NCBI GenBank assembly: GCA_964390805.1
Contig: CAYMKL010000014.1
Coordinates: 706 to 64,705, forward strand
Direction: 5' to 3'
Source of the DNA: an uncultured Anaerolineae bacterium
Lineage (GTDB): Bacteria > Chloroflexota > Anaerolineae > VGOG01
Length of the DNA: 64,000 bases
Every line of letters begins with the position of its first letter. Positions within the stretch are counted from its first letter, which is position 1. A program made the translations under genes and the position numbers. The notes under the pieces were generated by a model. That model was not told the origin of the DNA and ran no database searches. It was given only the letters and a program-made list of their open reading frames with translations. Positions 3,088 through 61,960 of the stretch are shown here, piece after piece.

Positions 3088-3135
3088 CTAATATCCATTA
3101 GCCAGTAAGTGGCTATTGGATATTGGCCGATAACA
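3084..3135. repeat. inverted repeat/hairpin between first and second GT-C genes (TTGGATA heptamer family)
   Basis: GCCAATAGCTAATATCCA ... GCTATTGGATATTGGC inverted arms. Confidence 0.4.
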
Positions 3136-3176
3136 CTGTCATCCACCAGCTATCTGCTATCAGCCATCTGCCAACT

Positions 3177-6938: not shown

Positions 6939-6942
6939 AAGA

Positions 6943-30757: not shown

Positions 30758-33700
30758 TCACCGCGTACCGATCACCAGCAAATCGAACGGGCCGACCGAG
30801 CGGATGTTCCCGGCCCGGTCCAATGCCTCTACCTGCAAGGTGTACAGGCCAGCCGTCTTCGGCCTGGGCGTGTAGCTCCACGTCGAACCGCCCCGATCCG
30901 CGACGTGCCAGAAGGAGTCACCCTCGGGCGTGTCCAGACGAACGTAGACCTCGCTCACGCCGCCGCCGTCGCTGACCGTGCCGACCAGCACCGGCGGGGG
31001 CGCCGTCTCGGTCGCCTTGTCCGTATCCGTGACCGGCTGGTACGCATCCAGCAGGATTTCGCTGATATGGGTGATGACGGCCACTGCTGGCGGGACGGTG
31101 TCCACCTGATAGGTGCGGCTCAGCGGCACCGTCGAGCGGTTGCCCACCGCGTCGAGGCCGTAGAAGGCGATGGTCTGGTACTCGCCGTCCGCGTCCTGCA
31201 CCGTCGCCGGGGCGTAGGTCCAGGTGCCGGTGGGCGTCGTACCCGGGCGCACGTCCACAGGCCAGCAGGTTGGTTCGTCCGGAGCGACTGAAGTCGCTAC
31301 TACGGTGCTCTGCCGGCCCCTGTTGCTTCCCTTCATCTCCAGCCCTTCGGCCTCGCTCAGGACAAGTGGCAGGTAGATGGTGTAAGGATACCGCCTACGC
31401 GCCGGACTGACGCAGACCTCCAGCCCGCTGGCCTGCCGGTCGTCGTGCACCTGGCCCGTGAAGAGGTGCTCGCCGAGGCCCAGCACCGTGTCAACCAGCG
31501 CCGCGTCCACGTCGGCGTCGAGGGTGACGGTGGGCGGGGTGGTGTCCACGATCAGCGTCAGCCAGTCCGTCCAACTGCTGGTGTGGCCCAAATCGTCGGT
31601 GGCCTGGGCGCGCAGCGCGAACTGGTCGCCGTCGTTGGCTGCACCCACGTCCCAGAGGCACGACCACTGGCCGTCCTCGTGGGTGGCGTCGGGGCAGGCG
31701 ATGGTGACCGGCGAGCCACCTGGCAGTGCCTGCGCTTCCAGCGTGACGATGGGCACGCCAGAGGGGTCGTGGACGATGCCGTGCACGGCGTTGGCGTAGG
31801 GTCGGATATAGGTTGCCGGTGCTGTAATCGTCAGGCTGATGGGCGCGGCGCTGTCCACGTCGTGCTGCACCCAGATCCAGTCGAAGGTGCCATGGGTGCC
31901 ATCGGCGACGCTGGCCATCACCTCGGCCGAATCGTCGTCCAGGTCGCTCTCCACGATGCCGCTGAAGCCGAGGGTGGCCGTGATGCCTGCGCTCACGTCG
32001 CCCAGGCTCAGCACCAGCGTGTCGCTTCCGGCGAAGTGCAGCGCGCCGCGCGCGGTGGCAGTGACGCGTACGTCGGGGGCAACCTCCGTTCCCTCGTTGG
32101 CATAGCGGACGGTGTAGTTGATGACCTGCCCGTCGTGGACAGGTTCGGGGTCAACGTCGACTGGCAGGACCAGGTCCACGATGGAGTCCAGGTCGGCGTC
32201 GAGGAACTGGTCGGGCGTCAGCAGGCTGTACAGGTCGTGCTCCAGGAAGCCCAACTCGACGCCGGGCGGGTCGGCCACGATGTCGACGTGCACGTCGGCG
32301 TCGGTGAACTGGCCCTCGGCAGGGCAGACTCCCGCTCCCAGCGACGCCCACTCGTACTGCTGGGTGAGGGTGAAGTGCTGCGTCGTGAGGACCGGGCCGG
32401 GGGCGTCAATGACGCGCTCGCTGTTGAGAGGGTTCTTGTCCGGCATAGCGGCCCACAGCCGCAGCCCGTCCTCCTCGCTGGCCAGGGCGACCAGGTCGAG
32501 GGACGTAGCCGCCGGGTCGGTGATGCCCAACAGGTCGAACGGCAGGTAGACGTCGGTGTGGGGCAGTAAGTGGGCGGTGCGCTGTCCTGAGCCTGTCGAA
32601 GGATCGAACTCGTAGTATTGGGGTGGGAGAGGTGCGTCCTCGATCCACTCGTCCCCATCCCAGCGCATCAGCGCGACGGCATCGGCGTCCTCTATCCAGA
32701 GCATGTAGTCGGCCTCCAGTTGGCGGCCGTTTTGGGCCGGCAGACCGATGACGGTCACTTCGGCTGAGCTCAGTGCAGGATTGGTCATCGTAGCGGTGTA
32801 GGGGTTGAAGGCCGTCGTCGCGCCACCGGGTGCACCGGTGTCGAAGTAGACGAAGATGTCGCCATCGCCAGCCCAGTCGGCGCCGCCCCAGGCGAGTCGC
32901 AGGGCCTCGTCGTTCCAGGTCAGGTAGAGCTCCTGGACTTCATTGAGGGCCGCGCCGGTGTGAGCGTTGCGCAGCACTTCACGGTTGACGCCGATCTGAG
33001 AGCAGCCGCTATCCATCCAGCCGTGATAGTTGCCCCCACCCCCGGCCCCTCCCCCAACCCTGGGAGAGGGGAGGATGTAGTCAGGCGTGGTAGGCGTGTC
33101 TGCATAGATGGGTCCCAGGGTGTGCCAGCGTTGGTTGCCGTGCACGTCCTGGGCGACGACGTGGGCATAGAGCGCCTGGGCTTCGCCAGCCTGCTGCTCG
33201 TGGTGGCGGTCTGTGGCCAGAGCGTACGTGGTGAGCGCGGCCAGGTCGGGCGTGGGGCTCTCGGTCCAACCGGCGTAGTAACGACCTAGGTCATCGCTGC
33301 TGCTGGCGGTCCACTCGAGGATGAGTGTGGGGCCGAGGACGTCGCGGATGGTATGGCCGGATGTGAGCACCGTGCGCCTGCCCAGGCCGTTGATGTAAGC
33401 CAGCGTAACGGTGACGGGCGCGGGCTTCACCAGGTCCACGGTGACGGTCTCGGTGACCTGCGCGGTGCGCCCGGCCACGTCGGTGGCGCGGGCGGTGACG
33501 ACGTAGGCCACGCCGTCGGGCTCGCTGCCCAGGTTCCAGGTGTAGCGCCAGGCGCCATCGTGGAGGGAAGCGTCGTTCCAGGCGTCCGAAGTGGTTACCT
33601 GTACCCGCTCTACGCCCCCGGTGTCGGTGACGAGGCCGGTGAGGGCCACGCGCCCCAGGGAGAGGCGATGGGTGGTGGTCAGCACGGTTGGCTCGACGGA

Positions 33701-36700
33701 TACCCACGGCGGCTGCGTGTCCACGATGACGGTGTCTGGGCGCGGGTCGGCCTGCACGCGGCCGGCCCAGTCGGAGGCGACAGCCAACAGCGTGTGTGGC
33801 CCCTCATCTGTAAGCGTAAGCGACGGAACCCAGGTGGTGCTCCAGAGCGTGTCGGTGATGGCGCCGTCGGGCCAGGTGGCGGCGTCCAGGAACGCGCCGT
33901 CCACGGTGACGGTGATGGTGTGCAGGGAGTCCACCGCGTAGGCGCCCACGGTCACACTGACGGGCTCGGTGCTGGTCAGCACGCTCTCGTGGGTGGGGGT
34001 GAGGACGGCGGCGTCCAGCAGTGCGTCCTGCTGGGCCAGCGCCAGGAGCAGGGTGCCAGCCGTTTTCGTGGTGCAGCGACCATGGATGTCGCAGGCTGTG
34101 ACCTTGGGGAACGGAGGCGGATCCGGGTGCCCAGGGACGGTGCAGGAGGGCGTCAGTTGGTAGAGCTGCGTGGCGTCGCTGGTCCAGGTGCGCCACCAGT
34201 CCGTGTCGAAGTAGTGACGGTCAGCGGCCTGCACTGAGCAGGGGCCACATTCAAAGCCATCCTCGACCAGATTGAAGTCCTTGGCCCAACAATCATAGGT
34301 GGTCTCGGCACTGGCGCCTGCGCCACGGAGGGTGACAGTGATGGCGACGCGGGGGGCGAGAGTATCAATCTCTCCGCGCCAGTGGTTCCAGGTGGATTGA
34401 TTGTCGTTGCGGTTGTCGAAGACGTCGTTGCCGCGCAGGTCAATCTGGTAGATGCCGTCCAGGTCGGCCGGGATGGGGTGGCTCCAGCTCGAGGTGGTGA
34501 CACCCTTGCCCGACTGGGCCAGTGCGGTATCCTCCCAATCCGGCTCCGTTACAGCGTGCGAAGCTAAGCCATCGGCGGGGGTGAAGGCGATCTCCAGCCC
34601 ATCCAGCCCTATAGCAATGTAGGTGGGGTCCATCACCGCGCCGCTCAGGGTCACTGTCTGAGTGATGGTGGTCGTTGAGGGGTCCGGGTAGGTCAACTCG
34701 GCGACCGGGGCGGTGTGGTCCAGCAGGATGAGGATGCCTGGGTAGTCCTTCTCCGGCGTGCGATTGCCCACCTCGTCGGTGGCGCGGGTGATGAAGACGT
34801 AGTCACCGGTGGGATTGGCCACGGCCTCGGTGTCGTCGTTGAAGATGGGGAGGACGTAGTCAATGGCCCAGGCCCTGCCCTGAGCTTGTCGAAGGGTATC
34901 GCCGTCCAGTGTGGCTTCCTGCCAACCGTCGCCCGATATGACCTCTGCGTCCAGGGGATCAGGGTCGGTCAGGAGCACCTCAACAGACCGGACACCGCTG
35001 CCCGGCTCTGAGCCGGCCATCGGGTCGCTGACGGTGCCATGCAGCGAGACGGTCCAGCGGTTCTGGGCGGTGAGCGTGGCAGTGACGATGGTGAAGTTGA
35101 CGATGTCGGTGTCCAGTTGTGGCGGGGAGCTGTCGAGGATGACGTCGGTGCCGGGGCCGGGTGTCTCGGTGTGGCCGACGACGTCCACGGCGCGGGTGTG
35201 CAGGGTGTGGCGGCCGTCGGCGTACCTGTCCACGCGCCAGCCATAGGCCCAGGATTCGTGGCCTGTGGCCGCCTCCCAGGGGTCGTTGTCTACGCGGACC
35301 TCGACGCGGTCTATGCTGGAGGTGGGGTCGTGGGCGTCGCCGCCGATGATGAGCGTGCCGGTGGCGGAGATGTACTGGCCGTGACTGAGGGAGGTGAGGG
35401 TGGAGGTGGGCCAGTCGGCGTCAATGAGCACGGGGGCGGCCTCGTCCAGGCTGATGTCGCCCAGCCAGGGCAGCACCTCGCGCAGGTAGAGGCGGTGCAG
35501 GAAGATATACCTGAATTGCCCCCACTGCCACCACGGTGCGACATTCGTCGTGACGGCGCAGTTGTGGTCATCACACGCCAGTGACATGCCGCGGGGCACT
35601 AGCTCGGGGTACATGGTTTCGTACGTTCCCCGACCGGAGTACCGGCTCCAATGCACAGCGTACGATTGTCCAGAGGCTCTGACGCTACCATTGGCCGCCA
35701 AAGCCTGATAAGCCACACTGCTGGGGGAGTCCCACCAGTCAGGGCCGTGCTCCCACATCGCTAACCAGCCTTTGTGTTGGGGGTCGTAAGCCACCCGCGG
35801 GTAGTAGAGCTCGCGGTCGCTACCCTTGGTGCCGATGGTGAACGCGCTCCCTACGCTGGAATCCTGCACGAAGTGACCACGTATCTTTTCTCCCTCGTAG
35901 CGGTAGACCACCAGCGCCTTGTCGGTGTTGGGGTCGTAGGCCACCTGGGGCAACTCTTCCATGCTATTTGTGTAGGCGATCTTGCCGCAACTGTCACTGA
36001 CGTAGTGGCCGTTGCCGTCCAGGTAGGCGTACCACACGTCGAAGTCGGCACTGCTGAAGTGATTCTCCCAGACGGCGACGTAGTTGCCTCCGACGTAGGC
36101 CAGATCCACGTAGCGATCCTCTCTGACACCTTGCGCTCCACGGCTATCCAGCCGCTCCTCATGGCTGTCGACGTCGCCGTCGTTGGTCACGATCCGGGTC
36201 TTGATCTCCCAGTCATCGTGCAGCCGCTGCCAGCCGACAAGGAAGTCGGAGCCGTTGGTGGCGACGGAGGGTTCTTGCTCGTGGTCATGGCTCCTGACGA
36301 TGGAGAAGGACGACTTCACCAGTTGCAGATTTGGCCCAACGATGGCGGCGTAGATGTCGAAGTCGTCGGAGTGCTCCTCTGCCCACACCACCAGGCACCG
36401 ACCGTTGTTGGCGCAGGCGATGGCGGGTGGATGGGCGGCCTTGTCATAGTCGCCGTCATCCACGTGTAGGGAGGCACCGTCGAGATTGTCGCCGGCCTGA
36501 TAGACGACGATGCGGCCCGTGACCTCGTTGTCGTCCTCGTCTGTGGAGTCGGCCTCCAGCGCGGCCACCACGTAGTCGCCGCTCCAGCCCGACGCCGGGG
36601 CAATGGCTGAATACCAGGGGTACTTGCCACTGGCTGCCTCTCGATGGCTGTCCTGCCGCGGGTCCCAGGTCCAGGTGGACTCCACACTGCCGGCGTGCAA

Positions 36701-39700
36701 CTGCGAGGTCATCTCGTTGGCGATGTCCACGCTCTGAGAGCCGGCGCCGCCATCCACGACAACGTCGGTGGAGACGGTCTCTGCCTCTCCCTGGAAGAGG
36801 TCGAAGGAGGTGGACAGGTCGGTGGCCTCCAGCACGGACGGGAAGGTGACCGTCAGCCCACCCAGGGCATAGAGTTCCTGGGAGAGGTTGTTGCGCACGG
36901 TGGAGGTGTAGGCGAAGGTCACCCCAGGCGCGACGATCCAGTCCTCGTCGTCGCTCTCAGGATAGATGCCCAACCCGCTGGTGGTGAACGCCTTGGGGTG
37001 GGTCCCCAGGGTGTGCTCAGCTAAGTCGCTCAGACCGTCGCCGTCCTCGTCGGCTATGAACGGGCTAGAGGTGACGTGGGTCTTGAGGTGGTTGGCGGCG
37101 TCGTATTCGAAGTCCCAGCCGTCCAGTTCCTCTTTGTCGCTCAGGCCGTCGCGGTCCGTGTCGCGGTTGTCCGGATTGGTACCCAGGCGCACCTCCTCGC
37201 CATCGGAGAGGCCGTCGTTGTCGCTATCTCTCGACAGGGGGGAGATGTCGGCCCCACCGTTTTTGGCCCCGGCGGCGCGCATCCGCAGCTCGTATTTGTC
37301 GGACAGGCCATCGCCGTCGGAGTCCCACCTGCTGTCGTCGGGGTCGTTGCCGTGGTGGGCGAAGGAGAGCAGGCCATCGCCATCGGCGTCCGCCTGTGGC
37401 CGGAAATCGTCGCCCCAGTTGAGGGCATAGAACTCGTCCAGCGTGGCGGGGAAGACGTCGAACACGACGTGTTGGCCCATGTGTAGTGACAGACTGTCGT
37501 CAAACGTCTGGTCGCTGCACACGAAGCCATGGCTGGTGGTCCAGCACTCGACGCAGGGGATGGCGTAGCCCACGTTGAGGTAAACCGGCATGGTGCGGTT
37601 GACGCCGGCCTGGAGTGGGACGTCGTTGACTGACAGACCGCTTTGCACCCAACCTCGGTACATCGTATTGAACGAATAGGTGTGATCCTCCTCGACGTCC
37701 TGCCAGGCGGAGGACATCTCACCACGGCTGGCAGAGACATCCTGTTCACTTCGGTTCAGTTGGTAGTTGAAAGTGGTAGATCGTAGATTACTCTCAGTGT
37801 ACAAGACCGGCACCCAGCCTGTTACGCGCCAGCCCTCCGGGTCCTGATGGACAATGGTTGTGGTCAGGTTTGTGCTGAGGGCCAACGTGTTGCCTGCCCT
37901 GAGACCTCGTGAGGGATTGCCCAGCGACATATTGAGTTCGCCCATAGTTGCGTCGGACTCGATGGTGGGCTCTACGTGGTAGATGAGACTGGCTATCTTC
38001 TCCGTCAACCAGCCGCTGATGGTCGGCAGACCCAATGCCGCGAGGACGACGTCAATCAGCGACACGATGGCGACGATGATGAGGCCAATCACGGTGAGGG
38101 CGATGATGAACATCACGATGAGCAGGATGGTGGCAGCGATGCTCTGAGCTAGCAGTTGGTTGTACTCGATGCTTCCCGCCTCCATGTCGCTGGCCTGGAC
38201 GAAAAAGGTCACCCAGACGATGATGGCGCCGATGATCAGGCCGATGAGGCCGCCCCATTTGGTGGCGCCGACCCAGGTGTGCGATGCGCACAAGTAGATC
38301 TTCATGGAGGCGAGGAAGCCGAAAGCGGAACTCCTGATCATCTCCACCACCGCCGTGATGTAGCCGATGAGCTTGATAGTGGTCATCAACCCGCCTATGA
38401 GGATGTTCAGCCCAATCTCGACCCACTTGACCCCGTTGAAGTAGGCGGAAACCAGCATAGTAACCAGGGCCACGACGGCGGCCAGGGTCAGGGTGACGGC
38501 GATACCCCGGCCCCAGCCTGAGCCCAGCCACTTCAGCCAGTCGTACTTTTCGGCCAGTGCACTGGGCCACCGCCAGAGCCACTCGACGTAAGCGAGTCTC
38601 GCTAATCCCGCTTTCAGCGACACCTGGCCCAGATACCTCCAGAAGGACTCCACTGAGCGGGGGTTGATTCCCGCCAGAGCCAGCTTGTAAACTGCCTCGA
38701 TGACTTTCTCGATCACTTTACCGCCTGTCTTCAGGGCCTCGGGCTCCTCCAACTGGGCAGCCTGCGATTGCAGCACATCGTCTCCCACCTGGACGATGCT
38801 GTTGACCCCATTGTAGAGCACGAGGTAATACAACTGGATGCCCAGCAACAGGCCGGCCGCCAACTCTTCATCCTCATTGAGAGTGGGATAACGGCGCGCC
38901 AGTTCGCGCCAGTATTCGTCAATCGGGCAGGCTTCCCATGCCCCGCTGCGGTAGCGGTAGGGAGCCCAGTTGATTCCGGCCAATGTTTGTACTGGCACTC
39001 CGTCAGCACCGCTAGGGGGCAGGTCCACGGTGAGCTGGCTGCCGCTCCATTGGACGTTGCTGCCGTGGCCCTGGACGTCCAGGTTGACCACACGGTAGTG
39101 CTCTTCGCGGGCGAACATGAGCGTGGGGGTGATGGGCCCCGACGGCGACCAGTGGGCGGTGAACACATCATTCAGGATAGCCTTGGTGTCGGTCATGGGG
39201 ATGGTGGCCCGTGCCACGTCCAGGTGCTCGTAGGTGTGGATTTCCACGTGCAGGATGTTGGGGATGTTCCAGCGTTGCTCCTCGGTGTACGCGCCGTTGG
39301 TGGTGCGGTTGAAGCGGTTGTAGATTTCGGCCACGGTGACGTCGCGCTGACCATTCTCGTCTGCGTCTTGCCCGGACAGGAAGGTGTAGTCCAGCCCGTT
39401 GGCCAGCACGACGAGGCTGGCGTCGTCGTTGAGGTCATCATCTACCTGCGGGTCTTCGTAGATGAAGGCCACATCTGTGCCATGATCCTCGCGCACGCTC
39501 AGGCCAGTCAGACGCCAGTCATCGTGGTAGGTCTGCACCACGCGCAACTGGTTCTTCTCACTGTACTTCGCGCAGATGCCGTCATCGTACTCCTCGCAGA
39601 CGTCCACCAACGCGTGCACTAGCCAGACCAGCCGCACCTGCTGGGCATTGCCCCAACCCCCCTCGGTCCCCCCAGGTAGGGGGGAGGATGGCCGGTAGAG

Positions 39701-41695: not shown

Positions 41696-41862
41696 TATCT
41701 TTGCCTCCTTTTGTGTTGTGCTTGCTCTGTTTTTCTGGCCCTCCTAATGCCACAACATCTTGGTCTTGCAAGCTCCGTCTTGCTGTGTCAACGAATACCA
41801 AGCGAACAGACGAATGATCAGCTTCAGACATCTTCTGCTGGGGCAGACACGCCCCACACTTA

Positions 41863-44800: not shown

Positions 44801-47800
44801 CAGTCCACCGCCTGGGGGCGGACGGTCTTGCTAGCAGGAATGTATCGCCAGAAAGCGTCTGAATCATAGCCTGCTGTGGCGTAGAGCGCACCATTCAGCC
44901 AGGCAAAGCCGCCTTCGTCGAACCCACCAGGAGTCGCTGCCAGGCTCTCCCAGGCGTCGGTATGCAGGTCGTAGCGGTAGAGGGCCGATGTCGACCTACT
45001 GCCACGCAGAGCGTATATGAAGCGCGCTCCATCCCACGCCAGACCCCCGTCCCAGATGTTGTCCGGAGCGTCAGCCAGGCGCGTCCAGGTATCAGTGGCC
45101 GGACTGTAGCGATAGAAGGCAGCGGAGCCATATCCAGGGAAGGCATAAACGGCGTCAGTGGCCCAGGTCATGGCACCACCCCACGTCACTGCTTGAGGAA
45201 TGTCGGCCTTCTTCTCCCAATAGTTGCTGGCGATGTCGAAGCGGTAGAAGTCCTTTCTGTCCTGGCGGGTGGTCATGTCCACACCGACGATCAGGTAAAG
45301 AGACCCGACGCCATCGCCAGCCAGAGCGGCGCCCCCGTAGGGCGCGGTGGGGACATTGGCGCGCCACAGCCATTCGTCGTTCAACGGGTCGTAGCGATAG
45401 AAACTCTCATTGCCTCCCGGTGTTGCATACAGATAGCCATCGCCGCCAGCGGTTAGGCCGGCTCCCCAACCGGTAGCTCCTGGGAAGTCGGTCTTCTGCT
45501 GCCAGGTGTCGGACTGCGGGTCATAGACAAAAAGATTCTTGGGATACCGCAGCAAAGCCATCGCCCAGATACGGCCGTCCCACCCTGCAATGCGGCTGCC
45601 CTTGGTCAGATAGGATGGTGTTCTGGCCAACTCTTGCCAGCCCATCTCCACGGCCGAGATAGCTGCCGACCAAATCTCCGATCCAGGGTGATACGTCGCC
45701 GGCAGCGGGGCTCCGTTCACGTCGAAAGCCACGCTCTGTACCCCGGCCAATGTATCGGTCACACAAGCCGTCAGCACCAGCGAGGGGGCGGTGACTTCTG
45801 TCGCCGTCGGCTCCCAGGTGATCTGCGACGGCGTGCGGTCTACCAACAACAGATCGTCCCAGCGCCAGAAGTGACGAGAGTGATAGCGCGATTGGCCGTC
45901 CCAGTGCTGGCCGCGCAGTGCGAAGAGTCCGCCCTGTCCCCACGCCAGGGAACCACCCTCCCAGATAGTTTCTGGGGCATTGGGCATGGTCTCCCAGCGA
46001 CCTGTCGGGATGTGGTAGCGGTAGAAATGCCCGCTAGCATTGCCAGCAAAGGCATAGAGATAGTCGCCGCTATCACATTCCCCTGACCCAATGCAGGCCC
46101 AGGCCAGTGCGCCGCCCCAACCGACGATGCTGGGAAGGCCAACCAGCACGTCCCAGACATCCCGTGCCGGGTCGTAGCGCCAGAAGCCGGAGGTGTAACC
46201 GCCACGCAGGGCGTAGATGGTCACGCCATTGCTTGTCCGATGAACCGCCAGCGCGATACCTTCCCGGCCCGCAGGGGCCGGCGCGTCGGCCAGTCGCTCC
46301 CAACCTCTGGCTGGAGCATAGCGGTGGAAGGCTTTGCTCTGCTGTGAGTTCAGGGCGTAAAGCGTTCCCAACCCGTCGCTGGCGAGGGCAGCAGCCGTGC
46401 CGATAGCGCTCGGAGAAGAAGCAACGGATTGCCAGGTGTCGGTAGCGATGTTGTAGCGCCACAACTGATCACTGGCCAGCAGGTAGATGCCGCCGTCTTC
46501 GGCTGGGGCCAGACCTTCACCCAGCCGGACATCAGTTGGCGTCTCGGCAAGAGCCTGCCAGCCTCCTGCCGATGGGCCTTGCCAGGCGGCCCTCACCGGG
46601 AAGCTGAAGAAACCACGCCTGCCTTCCCCAATGGTAACGTAGACCCGGTCGCCTACCACAACCATACGCCCGCCGTCGCCCACTGCCTGGGGCACATCGG
46701 GCAACGTGCGCCAGCGCCCCGCTGTCCACGCCACCGGGTCGGAGGCCTCGTTGCCCACGTTGTCCGTGCCACGAGCGTAGGTGCGAAGCAGGCCCTCTGT
46801 TGGCTCAACGACGTTAGCTTGCCACGTGCCTCCGGACGCAGTGGCCTGTTGCCACGTGACTGGGAGCGTGGCAGTCAACGGCTGGGTCGGGTCGTGCACT
46901 TGCCCCAGGCCAACCTCGACCTGGGCGACCCCCGTATCGGCCACGGCGCAGGAGGAGCCGACTGAACCGAAGAAGAGCCCGGCCCGGCCGCCCACAGCAG
47001 GAATGAGCAGGTCGGGCGAGGCGTCGCAGTTGGCGTCGCCGGAGCAGGGTGAAAGGGCTGGCGAGCTTGACCCGTTGGTCCAGGTGGCGTCGGCGCCGGA
47101 GAGGGGGGGCCAGCCGCCAGTGCGACCGTGCAGCAACCAGGCCCTGCTGCCTTCGCCGGCTACCAGGAAGTCGTCCAGACTATCGCTATTCACGTCTCCT
47201 GCAGGTCCGACAGCGGAACCTGCTCGGTCACCGCTCCCGCCCGTCAGGGTAGCGTCGGCGTCGGAGGTGAAGAGGGTGTAAGGCCAGGGTTGTCGTCCCT
47301 TGAAGAGGAACACCCGGCCGGCGTCGTTGTTGTAACCCGGCTCGCCCACCAGGAAGTCGTCCAGGCCATCGCCGTCCACGTCGCCCACGCCGGCCACGGC
47401 CGCGCCGGTGCGCAGGGCAGGATCAGGCACCGAGTGCGCCACGGAGACATGGGTTGACGCTGCCAGTGTGCGATCCTGGCGGCCTTGGAAGAGGAACACG
47501 GTGCCCGAGTCCAAATCAGCGACAGCGAAGTCGTCCAGGCCATCACCATTGATGTCGCCCAGGCCAGCCAGCCGGACGTTCGCGATGCTCGGAGCGTAGA
47601 TACGCCAAAAGTCGGGCTTACGGTCGCCACGGGCGGCATAGAGGTAGCCATCAAGCCAGGCCAGGGCGCCCCCTTCATGAACGACTTCCGGCACAGTTGG
47701 CAATGCCTCCCAGGTGTTGGTTTGCAGGTCATAACGGTAGGAGTGCGACTTCGCCTGACCGCGCAGTGCGTAGATATACCGACCTCTATTCCACGCCAGG

Positions 47801-50800
47801 GACCCGCCGCTGCCGATGCTGCCTGGCGCATTCGCAAGGCGCGTCCAGGTGTTCTCCACCGGGTCGTAGCGGTAAAGGGCGTTGGAATCTTTGCCTGGGA
47901 AGGCGTAGAGAGCGCCAGCAGCCCAGGTCAGGGCGCCGCCCCTTTGAACCGGCTGGGGGATCTCATGGAGTGACGTCCAGCTATTGATAGCGATGTCGTA
48001 GCGACAGAAGCCTTGCTGCCCATTGCCGGCAAGCAGGTAGAGATGGCCGGCGCCATCAGCAGCCAGGGCAGCGCCTTCGCCGGGCACGATGAGAGTGTTC
48101 GCCCGTCTGTCCCAGGTGTCCGTGGATACGCTGTAACGGTAAAAACCCAACCAACCGCCCAAGGTAGCGTAGATATAGCCATCGCCGCCCGCAGCCAGAG
48201 TGCCACCCAAAGTCACATACTTACCCGGAGGCAGGTTAGTCGTCTCCTCCCAGGCATTGCGCTGGGGGTCATATACGAAGAACCCGACACTTTGGCTGCC
48301 CTCCGTGGCCCAGATGCGACCATCCCAGGCGGCGATGCGGCCGCCCCAACCCGTTCCTTCCGGCGCGCTGGCCTGCACCTGCCAACTGGGGGCCTGAGCT
48401 GGCATCGTCAAGGACGCGGGCTGCAGGCTCAATCCGGCATCCCCCAGGGCCAGGTAGGCTGTGCCGCTAGTCGCGACGAGCAGGTCATCCATCCCGTCGC
48501 CGTTGACGTCGCCTGCTAATGCGGCACGGGTGGCTTGGTCGGCGAACAACACCGCCTCGGCAGCATTGGGGGCGAGGCGGCCCGGCCAGCCGCGATCGTG
48601 GCCCAGGAAGACGCGCACGCCCTTCTCGCTGCCCACCACCAATTCGTCGTAGCCGTCGCCGTTGAGGTCACCTGCATCCAGGTCCATAATCTCGCCGGAG
48701 AAGGGGCCGGCGGTTACATCGGCCGCCGCCAGGTTCAACTCTGGCGGCCAGCCGCCTGGCCGCCCGAAGAGCACGTGCACCGTGCTTGCCTGGACGTTGG
48801 ATATGGCCAGGTCGTCCAGATCGTCGCCGTTGAAGTCGCCCCAGGTGTTCAGGGTCAGCGCTCCGTCGCCGGTCGCCGGCTTCAGCCACACCGTGGCGTC
48901 GCCGGAGGCGTTCAGGGCGCCTTGTAGCGGCTTGGGCTGGGGCAGTGCGCCGAAGGGAGCCAACTCGTCAGCCGTCAGTTGCAGGGCTATCGGGTTGGTG
49001 CCCGTGACAGCAATGCCAGGTGCCTCGATCAAAGTGACCTGGGGTGGCGTGTTGTCCACAGTGACGTGCACCGCCGTCTGGCCGGTCTCCACGTTGCCAG
49101 CGCCATCGCGCGCCGTAGCCGCCAGGTCGAAGCGGCCATTGGGCCGCCCAGTGGGCAAGCGCAGGGTCGTCTGCCAGGCCGTCGCGTCTCCGCCGGGGTT
49201 GTCCAGGACGGCGTCTTGTCTGGGGCGAACGGGGCTGACCCGCACCTGGGCCACGCCGCTCAAGTTGTCCTGGGACTGACCGGTGACAGCCAGCGTGCGG
49301 TAGCCGTTGGCGCCGATGGGCACGGTGGTCTGGCTGCCGTCCGCTGGGCTCTGGATCGCGCTTTGGGGCGGGGTCTGGTCCACGACCACATGCACCTCAG
49401 GGCCAGGGGTTTCGCGGTGGCCGGGGACGTCGGGGAAGACGTCGCTGGCCTGGGAGCGCAGGGTGTAGGGGCCGTCTGGCGGCAGTTCCCAAGTGTAGGC
49501 CCAGCTCTCCCGGCCGCTGGCCAGCCGCCATTGCTGGTCGTGGTTCACGTCTAGCTCGACCTTGCCCATCTGGCTGGTGGGGTCGCGAGCTTCGCCGGCT
49601 ACCACCACGTGGCCGCCGGTGAGGAAGTCGCCCTCGGCGGGATAGAGGATGGTGGATTCGGGGGCGTCGCCGTCCACTTTGTAGACGAAGCGGTCGGCCA
49701 TAGTGCGTGGGTCTCCCTCCCAGGTGTATTCGACGATGCCGGTGGTGGTGAGTACCGTGGTAGCTGTGGGGGAGATGACGTTGGCGGCAACTACGAAGGT
49801 AACCCACTCTCCTGGGTCCACCCCGCTGTAAATCGTCAGCCGCCGCCCCAGGGTGCCGTCAGGACACTGTGGGTTACGCTCGTAAATGCGATAGTGCACG
49901 TCGTGAACGCTGGTCAAATGCTGGAACAAGTCCAGGTAATCTATGGTAACGAGGTCTCCCATGCAGATGATCACGTCGGGGGCAATGGTCGCGGGACTGA
50001 AGTTGAGGGCGGAGACGGTCACGCTCATGGGCGAACCGGCGGCGAGCACGGTATCGGGTGTGGGCTGGGGACTGACGATGACGGTCAGGCCAGACACGAA
50101 GGCGCGTGGGTTGGTGTTCAGCGCATACTCCTGATTATCGGTGAGACCGTCGCTGTCGGGGTCGGCGTTGTTGGGCAACGGCCAGGCCTGGGCAGGATCG
50201 AAGTGGCCTCCGAAGTCCATCTCCCAGCCACCCTGGAGCTCCGGCGTGCCGCCGGACGGGTGCACCACCCGCACCAGGTCTTTTTCGTCGCTCAGGCCGT
50301 CGGCGTCGGTATCGGCCCAGTCGGGGCGGATGTTCCACTTGAGCTCCTCGGCATCGGTGAGGGTGTCGCCGTCGGCGTCGGCGCGAACCGGATCCACGCC
50401 CAGCTTGTAGCGCTGCTGAATCTCGTAGCTGTCCAGCAGGCCGTCGCCGTCGCTGTCTGCGCATCTCCAACTGGTCTTGCTCTTTCCCTGAACTTGGTCG
50501 CAGGCATAGTCGTCTTCTTGAGTGTCGGGCACGCCATCGGCGTCCTTATCGTAGTTGTGCAACGAGGGCCACTCCCACAGCCCGTCCAGGGTCTCAGGGA
50601 ACACATCCACGTACATGTCGGAGAGGTCTTCTTCCTTGCTTTCTGCTTGGCCTTCGGTCTGTTCTGTCTCACAGAAGATGCCCCAGTAGTTCAAGGGGGA
50701 GCGCCAGCAGTGGCGGAAGGCGAAGCTGTAGCCCATGTCCAATCCAAACTTGAGGGGCAGGTTGATGGTTGGATCGGGCAAGGTGTAGTGGCCTTCCAGT

Positions 50801-53800
50801 GGATTGGTGCAAACCCGCCGCTCCGGATCGCCGTCCTCCTGGCAGGTCTCGCTGCCCCGCCAAAGTCCCACGGTGACAGTGACCGGCGCAGCGACGTGGG
50901 CGTCAGCCCACACCTTGCTGCGGGCCACGTCATCCGCGCTGCCGTCTTCGGTGGCCACCACGTAGCCGCGGAAAGCGCCAGCAAGGATGAAACGATTGCC
51001 CTTGGTGAAGCCGGCCTGGGCGTCGGCCAGTTTGGCGTTGGCGTCGTCGAAGAAGACGCTGTCCTCGTCTGGCATGGTCGCCAGCAGCTTGACCTCCAGC
51101 ACCAGGTTGCCTAAGAACTCCGCCACCTTGCTCTCCAGGTCGTAGCCGAACCAACTGGCGATCCAGAAGATCAACTGGATGATGAAGACGATGATCAGCC
51201 CCACCACGGTGAGCCCCAACACGAAGAAGATAATGGCCAGGATGGTGGCTCCGATGGCCATCTGCAGCGCCAGCCACCACTGCATGTTGGTGATGCCAGG
51301 CTGGCTGGTGATCTCGTAGAACATGTACCAGATCAGGGCAATCTGGATGACCAGCACGATGATGCCGGCCCACATCTTGGCGTTCTTCAGTCCCCACTCC
51401 AGACGTGTCCAACTGCCCTGACTGGTACCGGCCCACTTGATGGCTCGGTAGACGCTTACGGTCTCCTTGGCCACGTTGGCCGCTTTGGTGACTTCGACCA
51501 GGAACTTGATCTCATCGGAGATGGCCTTGGTGGCAATGAGCACAGTCAGGATGAAGATAGCCGCCATCAGGACCATCTGAGTGACCCTCATGTTGCTCTT
51601 GGCCCACTTGAGGGTGTCCCACCAGCCCCAGCCAGCCCTCGTCTCGGCGGTGAGGTATTTGCCAAGCAGCTTGGGCAGCTTGTCCAGCGTGGCCGGCCCT
51701 GCGATTTTCAGGGCCTTGAAGACCATTCCGGTGGGGTCATCGGGATATTCGAGGTCGTGGCTGTCTATCTTCACCGCCGCCTGGATGCCCTGGGAGGCAA
51801 CCAGCCAGAAGAGCTTCGTGGCCTGGAATTGCGAGCTACTGATCTGCCCTTCGGGAATCTCGTCGGTCTCGACCACGAAAGGGCCAAAGCGCTGTTCCAC
51901 GCTCTGCAGCACTTCCTTGACGCTCATCAACTTCCAGCCACCGGCATCGTACTGGTATTGGCTGATCTGCAGGGCGCGGATGACCATGATGGGCGCGTCG
52001 CCCAGGTTGACTACCAGGCCGCTGTATTGCTGGCTGAAATCCTCCAGGCCCAGCTCCCCGCCCTGGTGTTCCGTGGCGTGGAGCAGGAAGGCGGTGTCTG
52101 CCTGGGCGAAGTGGGTGTCCAGCAGCTCGTTGGTCATGGTCATGGTGAGGCTCGCCACGGCTTCGTCGGCGTGCTCGAAGTCGTCACAGATGCTGACCAC
52201 AGGGGTTGGGATGAAGAAGGTCTGCGTGATGGGGTATGAGGTCGGATTGCGGAATCGCTCCACGACTTCGTCCAGGCGGTCGGGTCTGCGGTTTTCGCCT
52301 GTCTCCGACGCACGCCAGGGAGGAGTCTCCAGGAAGCTTTTCTCCAGGCCGAAGAACAGGGCGGCCAGGTCTCCCTCGTCATCGCGGTCGGGGGTGGCGA
52401 AGACCGCTGTCTCCATGCCGGCCTCTTTGCTGACGTGGGCACCGGTGACTGCGAACTGGTCGGTGTACACGTGCAGCGGGGTTTGGGCGGTCTCGATTCG
52501 ACAGTTGGTTTTGTCGTCCTCGTCGCAGACTTGGGTGTCCACCCTGGCCTGGATAACCCACACCAGTTCTACCTGTAGCTCGATGGCTCCACCTGGAGGT
52601 ACGTCAGCGCCGGAAAAGGCGGCGCGGCTGTGGAAAGCGGCCGGGTAGCCGCCAGCATCCACCAAAGTCAGCGGGACGTAGAGGGTATCCTTGCCTGTAT
52701 CAGGGTCGTGCTGCAAGGCGATGCCGTACTGGGTGGCCTGCATGGGGGCCACGTTGCTCTCCATGCGCAGCATGGGGATCAGGGTGAGGTCGTCGGTGCT
52801 CTGGTCCAGGTCGCGCATCTGGCCCCTGTCGTCGTCGGGCCAATCGAGGGTCTTGAGGGTGTAACGCAGGTGGTCGGCGTTGGTGGGGCGTAGCTCGAGA
52901 TCAACGTAGATGGGGCCCTGGTGACCGCTGGGGTTGACGGTCAGCGGCAGTGAGGTTGTGCCAAACTCCGTTTGGCCTGCGCCAGATAGAGCGCGGAAGG
53001 GGGAGACGTCCACCTCATCGGGTACGCCGTCGCCGTCGTTGTCGTCGTCCCACAGGTCGGGCACGCCGTCCAGGTCGGTATCGAAGCGTTGGTCGAGAGG
53101 ACGGGTGAGAGGGTTGGGACCACCCGCTTGGCCGATGGGGTAAGCCCACTCAAGGTTGTCCTTCAGGGAGTCGCGGTTGGTGTCGGGGTCCAGGGGGCTG
53201 GTGGCCCAGTGCTTCCCATTGTAGTCGAAGCCTTCCACTTCTAGTGTGTCGGTGATCAGGTCGAAGTCGCTGTCCACTGTGTCGGTGAAGGTGCCCAGGA
53301 CCATTTCGTAGGCATCGCTGAGACCGTCCCTGTCATAGTCCTGGCCGTCGTATTTGAGCGCTAGCTCCTCGTAGTAGGCGGTGATGCCCAACTGGTCGCG
53401 CCAGGTAGCGGCCTGGGCGTCCAGCCGCGCCGCTTCTGGCGAACCAGGCGGAGCCGCGCCAGGGGTTGCCGCCAGGTCCAGGCCCTTCAGCAGGTCTTGC
53501 AGGGATGACGGCTCCTGGGGGGATGGCTCATCAGGAAGTGGCTCATCGGTGGGTGGTGCCGCTTCGGCAATAGACGGGCCGTAGCGGGCTTTGAAGCGGG
53601 CCAGCTTCCAGCCCGGTATGAAGGGCTGGATCAGCATGGCGATGATAACAAGGATAGCAACGCTGGCATAGACGCCGGGGCGCTGGCGGTAGGTCAGCAA
53701 CATCGCTAGGCTGACCAAAGCCACCAGGAAAATCAATCTTTTCAGGAAACCGGGTTCGTAGTCAGGCACGGAACGAAGTGAAGTGCCGTTGGACGCCACT

Positions 53801-54630
53801 CCGCTGGCGCTACGTGGCTTAGTACGAGCGGCGGCTTCACGCAACCCGAAGTCGGAGAAGTCGGTCACGATGCGGGCCTCAGTGGCGTAGTCTTCGCTGG
53901 CGTCGGGCAGGGTCAGCTCCAGGATCTGCCGCCGGGGCAGGCCGTCGGGTCCGATCCACAGCTCGCCCTGGCCGCTCAGGGTCTTCAAGGATGCTGGCGG
54001 TTGCAGGCGGGCGCCCTGAGGAAGGTCGGCTGCTACCTGCTCTTCCAGGCGACGCCGCACGTGCTCGGCGAAAGCGGGTCCGTCCAGGATGAAAGCCAGG
54101 CGGTCGTAACGCACGCCACCTGCCTCCACGACCGTTAGCTCGCCCACCTCGCGGGCCGCCTCCAGGTAGGCCAGGTAGTCGCCAGTGGGTGCGGCAATGC
54201 CCGCCGGGTCATCCATGCGCTGGCGCTTGCCGTCCATGGTCACCCACGTCTCGGCGCCGATGCGTTCGACCTCGATGGGCGTTAGCTCGGCACCGGGGGG
54301 CGCCAGGACGGGCAGCAGGCGTAGGTAACTGTAATCGGGCAGGCGCACCTGTCCCTCGGCCCGCAGGGCCACGTGCTCGTCGCTGCGACCGACGTTGTAG
54401 ATGGTCGGTTTGGGGATTAGCGTCTGCTCGATGTCAGCAGTGAAGGCGTAGCTACCGGCCTTCTGAGCCTGTTTCCAGGCATCGTGCAACTGGGCAGCGG
54501 GGTCGGGGGGTGAGGTGGCAGTGGCCAGTCCGGCCATGGTGATGACGAGGAGTAGTGCACCAAGCAGCAGGGAGCCCAGCACGAGCCAGATGCGGCGGGA
54601 ACAGGACGTGAACGTATCCAATGCCTTCAT
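41863..54630 (-). CDS. giant (about 4255 aa) membrane-anchored surface protein B, paralog of A: TSP3-like repeats, internal multi-TM block, FG-GAP repeats, three Kelch-type beta-propellers, Ig-like modules
   Basis: Uninterrupted 12.8-kb ORF (GTG 54648; ATG 54630 with AAGGAG 7 nt upstream preferred); N-terminus MKALDTF...LLLGALLLVITMAGLATA hydrophobic anchor; AGSYAFTADIEQT / GELWIGPDGLPRRQI shared with A; DxDxDG repeats about 52980-53070 and 50080-50560; TM block about 51090-51610; FG-GAP (DFNGDDLDDLAIS, DLNGDGYDELVVG); Kelch blades (FYRYSVSTDTW, LYRYDPVENTW). Confidence 0.85.
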   Translation of the reverse strand: MKALDTFTSCSRRIWLVLGSLLLGALLLVITMAGLATATSPPDPAAQLHDAWKQAQKAGSYAFTADIEQTLIPKPTIYNVGRSDEHVALRAEGQVRLPDYSYLRLLPVLAPPGAELTPIEVERIGAETWVTMDGKRQRMDDPAGIAAPTGDYLAYLEAAREVGELTVVEAGGVRYDRLAFILDGPAFAEHVRRRLEEQVAADLPQGARLQPPASLKTLSGQGELWIGPDGLPRRQILELTLPDASEDYATEARIVTDFSDFGLREAAARTKPRSASGVASNGTSLRSVPDYEPGFLKRLIFLVALVSLAMLLTYRQRPGVYASVAILVIIAMLIQPFIPGWKLARFKARYGPSIAEAAPPTDEPLPDEPSPQEPSSLQDLLKGLDLAATPGAAPPGSPEAARLDAQAATWRDQLGITAYYEELALKYDGQDYDRDGLSDAYEMVLGTFTDTVDSDFDLITDTLEVEGFDYNGKHWATSPLDPDTNRDSLKDNLEWAYPIGQAGGPNPLTRPLDQRFDTDLDGVPDLWDDDNDGDGVPDEVDVSPFRALSGAGQTEFGTTSLPLTVNPSGHQGPIYVDLELRPTNADHLRYTLKTLDWPDDDRGQMRDLDQSTDDLTLIPMLRMESNVAPMQATQYGIALQHDPDTGKDTLYVPLTLVDAGGYPAAFHSRAAFSGADVPPGGAIELQVELVWVIQARVDTQVCDEDDKTNCRIETAQTPLHVYTDQFAVTGAHVSKEAGMETAVFATPDRDDEGDLAALFFGLEKSFLETPPWRASETGENRRPDRLDEVVERFRNPTSYPITQTFFIPTPVVSICDDFEHADEAVASLTMTMTNELLDTHFAQADTAFLLHATEHQGGELGLEDFSQQYSGLVVNLGDAPIMVIRALQISQYQYDAGGWKLMSVKEVLQSVEQRFGPFVVETDEIPEGQISSSQFQATKLFWLVASQGIQAAVKIDSHDLEYPDDPTGMVFKALKIAGPATLDKLPKLLGKYLTAETRAGWGWWDTLKWAKSNMRVTQMVLMAAIFILTVLIATKAISDEIKFLVEVTKAANVAKETVSVYRAIKWAGTSQGSWTRLEWGLKNAKMWAGIIVLVIQIALIWYMFYEITSQPGITNMQWWLALQMAIGATILAIIFFVLGLTVVGLIIVFIIQLIFWIASWFGYDLESKVAEFLGNLVLEVKLLATMPDEDSVFFDDANAKLADAQAGFTKGNRFILAGAFRGYVVATEDGSADDVARSKVWADAHVAAPVTVTVGLWRGSETCQEDGDPERRVCTNPLEGHYTLPDPTINLPLKFGLDMGYSFAFRHCWRSPLNYWGIFCETEQTEGQAESKEEDLSDMYVDVFPETLDGLWEWPSLHNYDKDADGVPDTQEDDYACDQVQGKSKTSWRCADSDGDGLLDSYEIQQRYKLGVDPVRADADGDTLTDAEELKWNIRPDWADTDADGLSDEKDLVRVVHPSGGTPELQGGWEMDFGGHFDPAQAWPLPNNADPDSDGLTDNQEYALNTNPRAFVSGLTVIVSPQPTPDTVLAAGSPMSVTVSALNFSPATIAPDVIICMGDLVTIDYLDLFQHLTSVHDVHYRIYERNPQCPDGTLGRRLTIYSGVDPGEWVTFVVAANVISPTATTVLTTTGIVEYTWEGDPRTMADRFVYKVDGDAPESTILYPAEGDFLTGGHVVVAGEARDPTSQMGKVELDVNHDQQWRLASGRESWAYTWELPPDGPYTLRSQASDVFPDVPGHRETPGPEVHVVVDQTPPQSAIQSPADGSQTTVPIGANGYRTLAVTGQSQDNLSGVAQVRVSPVRPRQDAVLDNPGGDATAWQTTLRLPTGRPNGRFDLAATARDGAGNVETGQTAVHVTVDNTPPQVTLIEAPGIAVTGTNPIALQLTADELAPFGALPQPKPLQGALNASGDATVWLKPATGDGALTLNTWGDFNGDDLDDLAISNVQASTVHVLFGRPGGWPPELNLAAADVTAGPFSGEIMDLDAGDLNGDGYDELVVGSEKGVRVFLGHDRGWPGRLAPNAAEAVLFADQATRAALAGDVNGDGMDDLLVATSGTAYLALGDAGLSLQPASLTMPAQAPSWQVQASAPEGTGWGGRIAAWDGRIWATEGSQSVGFFVYDPQRNAWEETTNLPPGKYVTLGGTLAAGGDGYIYATLGGWLGFYRYSVSTDTWDRRANTLIVPGEGAALAADGAGHLYLLAGNGQQGFCRYDIAINSWTSLHEIPQPVQRGGALTWAAGALYAFPGKDSNALYRYDPVENTWTRLANAPGSIGSGGSLAWNRGRYIYALRGQAKSHSYRYDLQTNTWEALPTVPEVVHEGGALAWLDGYLYAARGDRKPDFWRIYAPSIANVRLAGLGDINGDGLDDFAVADLDSGTVFLFQGRQDRTLAASTHVSVAHSVPDPALRTGAAVAGVGDVDGDGLDDFLVGEPGYNNDAGRVFLFKGRQPWPYTLFTSDADATLTGGSGDRAGSAVGPAGDVNSDSLDDFLVAGEGSRAWLLHGRTGGWPPLSGADATWTNGSSSPALSPCSGDANCDASPDLLIPAVGGRAGLFFGSVGSSCAVADTGVAQVEVGLGQVHDPTQPLTATLPVTWQQATASGGTWQANVVEPTEGLLRTYARGTDNVGNEASDPVAWTAGRWRTLPDVPQAVGDGGRMVVVGDRVYVTIGEGRRGFFSFPVRAAWQGPSAGGWQALAETPTDVRLGEGLAPAEDGGIYLLASDQLWRYNIATDTWQSVASSPSAIGTAAALASDGLGTLYALNSQQSKAFHRYAPARGWERLADAPAPAGREGIALAVHRTSNGVTIYALRGGYTSGFWRYDPARDVWDVLVGLPSIVGWGGALAWACIGSGECDSGDYLYAFAGNASGHFYRYHIPTGRWETMPNAPETIWEGGSLAWGQGGLFALRGQHWDGQSRYHSRHFWRWDDLLLVDRTPSQITWEPTATEVTAPSLVLTACVTDTLAGVQSVAFDVNGAPLPATYHPGSEIWSAAISAVEMGWQELARTPSYLTKGSRIAGWDGRIWAMALLRYPKNLFVYDPQSDTWQQKTDFPGATGWGAGLTAGGDGYLYATPGGNESFYRYDPLNDEWLWRANVPTAPYGGAALAGDGVGSLYLIVGVDMTTRQDRKDFYRFDIASNYWEKKADIPQAVTWGGAMTWATDAVYAFPGYGSAAFYRYSPATDTWTRLADAPDNIWDGGLAWDGARFIYALRGSRSTSALYRYDLHTDAWESLAATPGGFDEGGFAWLNGALYATAGYDSDAFWRYIPASKTVRPQAVDWLGNVDYGQERTIAVSVPDLGNIVENYADGDISTESLPPIEGTAVASQGIAQICVRTATTGSCIAPDGNPHRFHWAYARDFVVLSRWEDGAHNATASVRDTDGAEYVTDPVRIIVDATSPVASFTGPTGGSVITTTGRITVTGTATDATSGVTAVRFSPDNTASWREASQDGGTWSATWDVPRLDGQTWHLAVEATDRGGLTTQQRIALTVDNVLPGGLTPVTFNLEEGTHTGVGASLQATWNAATDGSGIAGTFVALDQITNTVPTAPAAGTSFSGSFDSPGDWYFHLRAADNASNWLIRHYGPWHVSDAGLGLSGGTSIVVVDGVVDIPHGEWLPEFHLLDEDVRTAGQTAQLYTQWDADDLFLGWQGGIWSLDGEAWFLFDTGAGGATDVAGHTLPFHAEYAFTVDEHDVASFLAWNGSTWVAVEDASVEYAHSSLGGTEVRIPLAALGQPVGLGFMAFAVPEDGGAAWAVFPATNPLAGPWTDAYTWPELGPQVMPSAGQPVADHTWLVVSSLQPPAVHLGQGSVITYEVRLGSSGLQAAEDARLTLEASPGLAYFSAEGDGACESCGPGSAIWAWQFGDLPSGEWRSLTVEAQVVDALTAGGAVTTTATLHTTWPDASPSDNLVTLSHAVDAEGLRVELTDPSGEDAVRPGWVTVLGTVPPGQGASAARVEVAVTVSEAPASADWQTAHGTLFWTGKVDVPEGVETVWVWARAWDVLGNVGPVAGTEMLVDAVGPQAAIEQPAVSPTLVGGRALEIAGRAFDSFPANGALNAVEIQLDGGPWGVVDQPVRQADGTYTWTWRWWLPAGEEGITYTLRVRAIDAAGNVGEPSVPVEVIVDAVAPTTTIAHPADGTWLEPDVTQVLVWGWSEDGVGVDRVEVSLDGGLTWRNAVLADGAEKLLAERSQSPTPQPETQNPKPETATLWAFAGTLPEDQVEYFIRARSGDRAGNAELTGPTVVVHMVVSRFWLPLVLKS
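42030..42066. repeat. heptamer tandem array (GTTTCGG family) in-frame near C-terminus of giant B
   Basis: gtttcgggtttcgggttctgggtttcgggttgagg encodes (minus) PQPETQNPKPET; reverse complement of KorB N-terminal array family. Confidence 0.6.
51090..51610 (-). other. internal polytopic transmembrane block of giant protein B
   Basis: MRVTQMVLMAAIFILTVLIATKAI...GLTVVGLIIVFIIQLIFWIASWFGY; flanked by DxDxDG repeats. Confidence 0.6.
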
Positions 54631-54650
54631 GGTAAACTCCTTTCGCACTC

Positions 54651-61892: not shown

Positions 61893-61919
61893 CCCCTCAT
61901 TCCTTCCTTAGGCCCCGCT

Positions 61920-61960
61920 ACTCGTTGCCTCGTTCCTCATTGCCTCGTCCCTCATCCCCT
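61920..61960. repeat. heptamer tandem array (CTCGTTG/CCTCATT) intergenic
   Basis: ctcgttgcctcgttcctcattgcctcgtccctcatccccta. Confidence 0.55.

Follow-up and report, generated by a model that had tools for sequence, protein, structure and literature searches.

Giant surface adhesins are already known. The RTX adhesins of type I secretion systems (T1SS), such as LapA and SiiE, and the LPXTG-anchored proteins of the Bap and Ebh types are chains of several thousand residues made of Ig-like and propeller domains, with calcium dependence and variable ligand-binding regions. In Mycoplasma mobile, whose cells have no outer membrane, the surface proteins Gli349 and Gli521 (3000-4700 residues) have transmembrane (TM) segments of their own in the cytoplasmic membrane, and the eukaryotic adhesion GPCRs and polycystin-1 join a very large modular adhesion ectodomain covalently to a polytopic core. 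The Omnitrophota giants (Archaeovorins and the Dockerin type) are mostly extracellular proteins of more than 30,000 residues with predicted TM regions and with SecA-DEAD, HEAT or dockerin domains, and the Dockerin type also contains thrombospondin type 3 (TSP3) repeats (bioRxiv 10.1101/2023.11.21.568195). Here we analyze two tandem genes, named A and B, in a stretch of 64,000 nucleotides (the window) of contig CAYMKL010000014.1 from an uncultured Anaerolineae bacterium of the phylum Chloroflexota (GenBank assembly GCA_964390805.1). Their sequences suggest that A and B are, as we consider probable, membrane-rooted, calcium-stiffened giant adhesins exported by the Sec pathway, with a new kind of anchor; what is new is the widely conserved membrane base of the A/B family.

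A and B share with the classical giant adhesins all of the features listed above, but they are predicted to be anchored N-terminally, with several membrane helices inside a conserved module of 1600 residues. No HemolysinCabind (RTX nonapeptide) or T1SS family match was found in A, B or their neighbours, and no LPxTG-like motif is present near the C-termini of A and B. The Omnitrophota giants, which belong to another phylum, resemble A and B in being giant, mostly extracellular and equipped with predicted TM regions; however, no SecA-DEAD, HEAT or dockerin domain was found in A or B, and no sequence relation to those proteins was seen. The likeness to Gli349 and Gli521 is an analogy of design only, with no detectable homology, and that to adhesion GPCRs and polycystin-1 is likewise an analogy between unrelated sequences and folds, in which the ectodomain comes first, that is, in the opposite order. 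An earlier reading of the window made from its sequence alone (the sequence-only reading) had proposed a membrane-embedded core combined with more than 2000 residues of adhesin-type ectodomain; this architecture was borne out, and proteins that join so large an adhesion ectodomain to a membrane core of several helices are rare in bacteria.

As that reading had also stated, both open reading frames (ORFs) are intact. They run without interruption on the minus strand between positions 30758 and 54648 and comprise 3645 and 4261 codons, respectively (coordinates of all features are given in Table 1). The first ATG of gene B (54630) lies 7 nucleotides downstream of the sequence AAAGGAG, and the B protein is therefore most likely 4255 residues long, in agreement with the estimate of the sequence-only reading. 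The spacer between B and A measures 167 nucleotides and contains no terminator-like site. The proposed paralogy of the two proteins is confirmed by an alignment of about 1700 residues (A 26-1715 to B 44-1687) with 29% identity and an E-value of 2e-135, and two additional, shorter C-terminal segments match with 26-29% identity. By sequence comparison, A and B are old paralogues and not the result of a recent duplication.

The base module common to A and B comprises about 1600 residues and is followed by a C-terminal part of 2000-2700 residues. Its elements are arranged in the order signal peptide, LolA/LprG-fold domain, TM hairpin, TSP3 block 1, beta domain, hydrophobic helices, second beta domain and TSP3 block 2. 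The N-terminal hydrophobic segment had been taken for an anchor, but it has the appearance of a signal peptide of the cleavable Sec type: in relatives the hydrophobic core likewise ends in AxA, ASA or VSA-type sites, and an AxA-type site is conserved family-wide. The adjacent domain, already recognized as conserved, can now be placed in the LolA/LprG/LppX fold, since in A it has the unclosed beta half-barrel with a helical plug typical of LolA and of LppX-LprAFG proteins. This fold, known from bacterial carriers of lipids and lipoglycans (LprG/LppX), is common to LprG/LprF/LppX, LolA/LolB and the N-terminal domain of A and B, but the sequence signature of those proteins is missing in A and B: no Pfam LolA, LppX_LprAFG or related model matched the A domain, even at E<=10. 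Neither is there a lipobox in the A/B family, whose signal peptides end in AxA-type sites without a Cys at +1. Whereas LprG and LppX have a lipid anchor, the domain in A and B is the first of a giant protein and is tethered through the TM hairpin that follows it. The hairpin itself, also noted before, was supported by hydropathy in both proteins, and its region contains two helices in 77 of 97 long relatives. In B, the hairpin is followed by Pro/Glu-rich linkers.

The two calcium-binding blocks of DxDxDG-type motifs reported for each protein were recovered with five and four motifs in A as well as in B, about 50 times the number expected by chance (0.1-0.2 in shuffled sequences). The Pfam model TSP3_bac matched A with 46 bits, above its cutoff of 25, and TSP_3 matched B with 17.5 bits, under the cutoff of 25; we regard the TSP3 blocks of A and B as ordinary. 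Runs of this kind are also present in other extracytoplasmic bacterial TSP3 proteins (PF18884, PF02412), including CglD and MtsD of Myxococcus. The matches of A and B to CglD (NF033765; 61 and 34 bits vs a cutoff of 400) and to MtsD (NF047639; 26 and 18 bits vs 800) are confined to the TSP3 block, and both Myxococcus proteins are far smaller than A and B and have neither an internal hydrophobic block nor a LolA-like domain. The first beta domain of A, 460 residues long, has no solved structural relative that we could find, and its Cys700 is nearly invariant in the family. None of the base-specific parts is covered by Pfam or NCBIfam, even at E<=10. The family offers two confidently predicted domains without a solved relative.

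The helical block between the two beta domains was analyzed by hydropathy (Kyte-Doolittle and Hessa-type), which gave four to five hydrophobic helices in A, where residues 1176-1231 form a double segment, and four in B. When 87 members were aligned, about 100% of them had a hydrophobic sequence at each of the helices c, d and e, 94-97% at helix a and 82-91% at helix b, but just 17-28% at a candidate helix x upstream of them. The count of about eight packed helices in the sequence-only reading was consequently too high, as three helices (c, d and e) are always hydrophobic in these relatives and usually five are. The glycine in the turn between d and e (G1204) is kept in 85 of the 87 members, and position D1215, midway along helix e, holds Asp or Glu in 84 of them. 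Helix e of B (window ~51150-51180) has Phe in place of this acidic residue, whose role B may have lost. K/R-rich stretches precede helix a and lie between b and c, and acidic sequence follows e; such a distribution of charges is compatible with six spans (x, a, b, c, d, e) and an external position of all large domains, and for B a model of four spans (a, c, d, e) is suitable. AlphaFold2 (AF2) predicted helices c-e with confidence (predicted local distance difference test, pLDDT, 80-90). The predicted embedding of the block in the membrane is well supported; its exact topology is less so.

The C-terminal part varies with the lineage. The FG-GAP repeats, three Kelch propellers and Ig-like modules previously seen in B were all recovered by Pfam (Kelch_6, 110 bits; Kelch_1, 81 bits; FG-GAP and FG-GAP_3, 51 bits each; the thresholds for repeats were passed), and the Kelch units are 31-50% identical to one another. 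The corresponding proposal for A held for the Ig-like modules, which Pfam identified, but not for a propeller: a P.VA...LVVW-like motif does recur at about residues 1740-2080 with a spacing like that of propeller blades, but no Pfam family matched this region, and a test for self-similarity within it was negative. The C-termini of relatives differ from these and contain LamG, PKD, PA14, Rax2-like propeller and cadherin-like domains. All Pfam families found in the ectodomains of A and B are of extracellular type, and searches of Pfam and NCBIfam revealed no domain of toxins, enzymes or secretion systems in either protein.

The B protein ends in RFWLPLVLKS (window 41866-41895), and 15 of 97 long members end in (I/L)(Y/F)LP(L/V)(V/I)(L/F/M)(R/K) followed by 0-3 residues (for example, AIYLPLVFRNH or RIYMPLVLR), against a background for the pattern of 0.0026 per 25 residues. 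In A the motif is internal (IYLPLVLS at residue 3441; 3439-3451, window ~31343-31381), 204 residues before the end. Judged from its sequence and position, this C-terminal LP motif looks like a sorting or processing tag not described before; a literature search returned no description of it. The motif was also noted at family loci L003, L007, L013, L017 and L018. Unrelated signal-peptide proteins in Chloroflexota loci share the ending (LFLPMIVK in L018 and IYLPLIMRNP in L013).

A search with residues 1-1440 of A yielded 66 clear homologues, 27-55% identical over the matched segments, all of them annotated as hypothetical or named for a C-terminal domain; those with a named source are nearly all from Chloroflexota. 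An exhaustive phmmer search with A 515-1440 against 1.84 billion representatives gave 1065, 847 and 535 cluster representatives at E<=1e-3, 1e-10 and 1e-30, respectively. Among the best 150 of the 1065 matches, the core mostly occupies residues ~500-1500, and the longest of these proteins has 6469 residues. In a genome scan, at least 42 loci were found in Ardenticatenaceae, Caldilineaceae, Anaerolineales, Chloroflexales, Kouleothrix, Thermoflexales, Promineifilaceae and the isolate Herpetosiphon giganteus DSM 589, with two or three copies in several genomes. Two bins in this set, possibly the result of misbinning, are named as non-Chloroflexota (Halieaceae and Ilumatobacter). Judged by these loci and by the homologues listed, the family is more or less restricted to Chloroflexota, and nearly all named members come from filamentous lineages. 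A related core also exists in Asgard archaea. ORFs are open for at least 3700 residues in seven family loci and complete at 2754-3701 residues in others, and frameshifts and contig ends can account for the shorter ones, as in the split gene of locus L004. The presence of long ORFs in independent genomes indicates that the giant size is a trait of the family and therefore no artefact of the assembly of this window. We found no description of this protein family in the literature, and Pfam and NCBIfam cover its TSP3, Ig, Kelch and FG-GAP parts only, in agreement with the earlier statement that A and B belong to no described family.

In the mechanism that we propose, the proteins would be exported by Sec with a cleavable signal peptide, and the conserved base of about 1600 residues would keep them rooted in the cytoplasmic membrane. 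The variable chain of 2000-2700 residues, made of Ig-like, propeller and lectin-type domains, would project from the cell and bind external ligands, for instance on the substratum, on neighbouring cells or on the envelope of the filament itself, and calcium in the TSP3 blocks would stiffen the segments leaving the membrane. The predicted envelope location is well supported by the signal peptides, the conserved Cys pairs and the extracellular-type domains. That the proteins take this export route, hold their large domains outside the cytoplasm and serve in adhesion is our inference. Several observations weigh against this adhesin model. The usual five hydrophobic helices are an odd number, while both flanks of the block look extracytoplasmic, so that either helix x must also span the membrane or helix b must not; helix x is, however, usually too polar for a six-span topology, and the co-occurrence of x and b, which might rescue an even number, correlates weakly (r 0.35, 87 members). 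The closest relatives of A (P0002 and P0121) have three clearly hydrophobic helices only (c-e), and AF2 was unconfident for the first half of the block (pLDDT 36-50). Moreover, no annotation ties any family member to adhesion, and a passive anchor does not need 1600 conserved residues, so that the term adhesin probably understates the function.

The conservation of the base, its lipid-carrier fold and the near-invariant Asp of helix e suggest that it is more than a passive anchor. It might be a membrane machine of a kind not seen before, in which LolA-like lipid handling, the beta domains and the buried carboxylate serve to transmit force or ion-motive energy, or to extract and present envelope lipids. 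We hold this idea to be unlikely; if the base does transmit force or energy, it would be the apparatus for gliding or surface translocation that is still missing for filamentous Chloroflexota. These organisms are dominant in activated sludge, in hot-spring mats and in many sediments. According to a 2023 survey, the mechanism by which they adhere to surfaces is still unclear (PMC10746286), and the A/B family may bear on how they stick to surfaces. With its hundreds of divergent clusters and several copies in some metagenome-assembled genomes (MAGs), the family is a concrete candidate for attachment, bundling or gliding, and its presence in the culturable H. giganteus DSM 589 makes it experimentally testable.

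Other functions were weighed against adhesion as such. The base could link the adhesive chain to a force or track system of the membrane, which would make A and B the "feet" of gliding in a role like that of Gli349/Gli521 or of Myxococcus CglB/CglD. A membrane-embedded carboxylate marks ion-driven stators, and an acidic residue is near-invariant within the hydrophobic helix e; the base is conserved and the head variable, and the TSP3 repeats resemble those of CglD and MtsD. Known gliders (Herpetosiphon, Chloroflexales) are among the filamentous lineages to which the named taxa belong, and the gliding machinery of Chloroflexota is unknown (PMC13104615). However, the CglD match is limited to TSP3 and far below its cutoff, B is without the Asp of helix e, many host lineages (Anaerolineae, Caldilineae) are generally described as non-motile, and the contig look-ups and 48 family loci revealed no conserved neighbour of a motor-like or cytoskeletal type, so that we consider such a coupling to motility unlikely. 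A further alternative, raised in the sequence-only reading and in our view rather improbable, is that the proteins anchor or organize a sheath, a surface layer (S-layer) or a wall polymer and are glycosylated by nearby enzymes of the glycosyltransferase C (GT-C) type. Six GT-C-type genes share the window, the LolA/LprG fold is a carrier of lipids and lipoglycans elsewhere, TSP3 repeats stand beside wall-binding domains in OmpA-family proteins (weak match to 5wtl), and the Pro/Glu-rich linkers of B would suit such a scaffold. Nevertheless, distances of 5.4 and 17.7 kb, filled by unrelated genes, separate the GT-C genes from B and A, and they recur at none of the 48 family loci, which leaves the glycosylation suggested in the sequence-only reading unsupported. 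The C-terminal domains also differ greatly between paralogues and species, which fits ligand binding better than a uniform lattice, and several divergent copies occur per genome.

The helical block could also be a colicin- or Bcl-2-like insertion domain of a toxin or contact weapon, which would enter the target membrane once the C-terminal domains have bound the prey. Its approximately ten helices, with an invariant and very hydrophobic d-e hairpin and upstream helices of variable hydrophobicity, are compatible with this, and Herpetosiphon is reported to be a predator (PMC6210107). A weak profile match to the pore domain of pyocin S5 (E 0.004, long profile) pointed in the same direction, but it weakened to E 1.7 once the profile was restricted to the block, had no structural support and was rejected; no significant sequence or fold match of the block to a colicin/pyocin pore-forming domain was found. 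The weak matches after TSP3 block 2 to anthrax PA-63 (E 0.004) and to C2-II were set aside, as their E-values are marginal and the shared calcium-site motif is probably what drives them. The separate, strongly hydrophobic N-terminal hairpin argues for a permanent stay in the membrane of the producer, there is neither a variable C-terminal toxin domain nor an immunity-like gene downstream, and most host lineages are not known predators, so that a toxin is very unlikely. As for the possibility that the long ORFs yield no proteins, being assembly artefacts or decaying pseudogenes, the exact A protein is absent from the gene-position collection and many MAG homologues are fragmented. Against this stand 11-13 kb of stop-free sequence in DNA of 63-69% G+C with strong ribosome-binding sites, a domain-by-domain conservation with hundreds of relatives, and the long or complete ORFs of independent genomes, including an isolate; this explanation is effectively excluded.

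The genes around A and B were compared with those at other loci of the family. The 211-residue protein upstream of B has its stop codon 20 nucleotides before the B ATG and is therefore probably co-transcribed with B; this ubiquitin-like protein was found beside none of the 48 family loci. Beyond the adjacent regulator, the same strand carries NUDIX and DUF4760 genes, one gene without assignment and then the PMT_2 and DUF2298 genes of GT-C type. Convergent central-metabolism genes adjoin the 3' side of A, and the four tandem GT-C genes lie 17.7 kb beyond it; the GT-C genes had been described as flanking, and they are indeed present in the window but not adjacent to A and B. Six GT-C-type genes are an unusual concentration for one window, yet without synteny to the giant-protein family. 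The sucC gene of the window was also detected in the metagenome run SRR24302423. In tblastn searches, none of eleven window neighbours recurred at the 48 family loci, and six contig look-ups revealed no conserved partner. No second family N-terminus was found within 10 kb upstream of these loci (the upstream side only). A dedicated two-protein system, as suggested in the sequence-only reading, is therefore unsupported: A and B, with their 29% identity, belong to a large stand-alone family that has one to several scattered copies per genome, and both the tandem pairing and the GT-C flanks are local features of this window.

Table 1. Positions of the features of genes A and B and of neighbouring genes in the window. 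B residues are numbered from the GTG of the ORF.
Feature	Residues	Window position	Strand	Remarks
Gene A	1-3645	30758..41695	-	3645 aa; ATG start, AAGGAGG eight bases before
A signal peptide	1-32	41600..41695	-	Sec type; basic n-region, hydrophobic core, AIA/SS site
A LolA/LprG/LppX-fold domain	33-285	40841..41599	-	strongly conserved; motifs AGSY.F.AD..QT and GELW.G.DGLP.RQI
A TM hairpin	288-342	40670..40834	-	two hydrophobic helices, basic turn HSRSKK
A TSP3 block 1	400-515 (motifs 410-506)	40151..40498	-	5 calcium-binding motifs; Pfam and motif count
A first beta domain	515-975	38771..40153	-	three ~20-residue strands, conserved Cys700; pLDDT mostly 85-95
A helical block	985-1238	37982..38743	-	~ten helices, five hydrophobic: a 1060-1087, b 1092-1120 (weak), c 1141-1168, d 1176-1199, e 1202-1221
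A second beta domain	1239-1425	37421..37981	-	confident prediction; conserved Cys1384/Cys1393 pair
A TSP3 block 2	1430-1600 (motifs 1458-1557)	36896..37408	-	4 motifs
A ectodomain	1601-3645	30761..36895	-	lineage-variable; Big_7, Big_3_3, Big_13, weak DUF11
Gene B		41863..54630	-	4255 aa from ATG 54630; ORF open from GTG 54648 (4261 codons)
B signal peptide	7-47	54508..54630	-	hydropathy and N-terminus comparison
B LolA/LprG-like domain	48-295	53764..54507	-	by homology to A
B TM hairpin	299-350	53599..53754	-	hydropathy
B TSP3 block 1	(motifs 437-544)	52999..53346	-	5 motifs
B first beta domain	551-965	51754..52998	-	by homology to A
B helical block	966-1185	51094..51753	-	clear helices 1020-1044, 1092-1111 and double 1124-1169
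B second beta domain	1186-1362	50563..51093	-	by homology to A
B TSP3 block 2	(motifs 1367-1504)	50119..50556	-	4 motifs
B ectodomain		41866..50118	-	Ig-like modules, two FG-GAP stretches, three Kelch units, DUF11, E-set domains
B Kelch unit	2075-2345	47614-48426	-	
B Kelch unit	2630-2965	45754-46761	-	
B Kelch unit	3025-3340	44629-45576	-	
211-aa protein		54651-55286	-	one hydrophobic helix ~aa 100-120; C-terminal ubiquitin-like beta-grasp, PF00240, E 5e-8
GAF-receiver-winged-helix regulator		55436-57607	-	upstream of B, same strand
PMT_2 and DUF2298 genes		60042-63938	-	GT-C type, 5.4 kb upstream of B
Four tandem GT-C genes		73-13016	+	PMT/PMT_2 fused to PA14 and/or NHL propeller; 1004, 1271, 876 and 1073 aa

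Regulators are found beside many family genes, which suggests conditional expression; the family is stand-alone and probably regulated. In four of the six look-up loci (L001-L004, of which three are named: Caldilineaceae, Caldilinea sp. and Ardenticatenaceae), a STAND regulator of the BTAD-NB-ARC/AAA_16-WD40/TPR type is located upstream on the opposite strand, and receiver-domain regulators (8000-9930) lie upstream in L043, which contains the closest relative of B. A 205-residue "gene" upstream in L004 was rejected as a candidate partner, as it corresponds to the frameshifted N-terminus of the giant gene. In Ardenticatenaceae FR_9 (L004 and L007; JAOSJS010000001.1, 4.055-4.112 Mb) and in L003, two family genes are found no more than approximately 10-35 kb apart, and the interval contains a regulator or other genes. 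Paralogues can therefore be loosely clustered, although tight tandem pairs were not seen. The G+C content is 0.61-0.69 in the region of the A and B genes (window 30001-57000) and 0.57-0.61 across most of the remaining window, and the raised values may reflect a composition rich in Gly, Ala, Asp and Pro.

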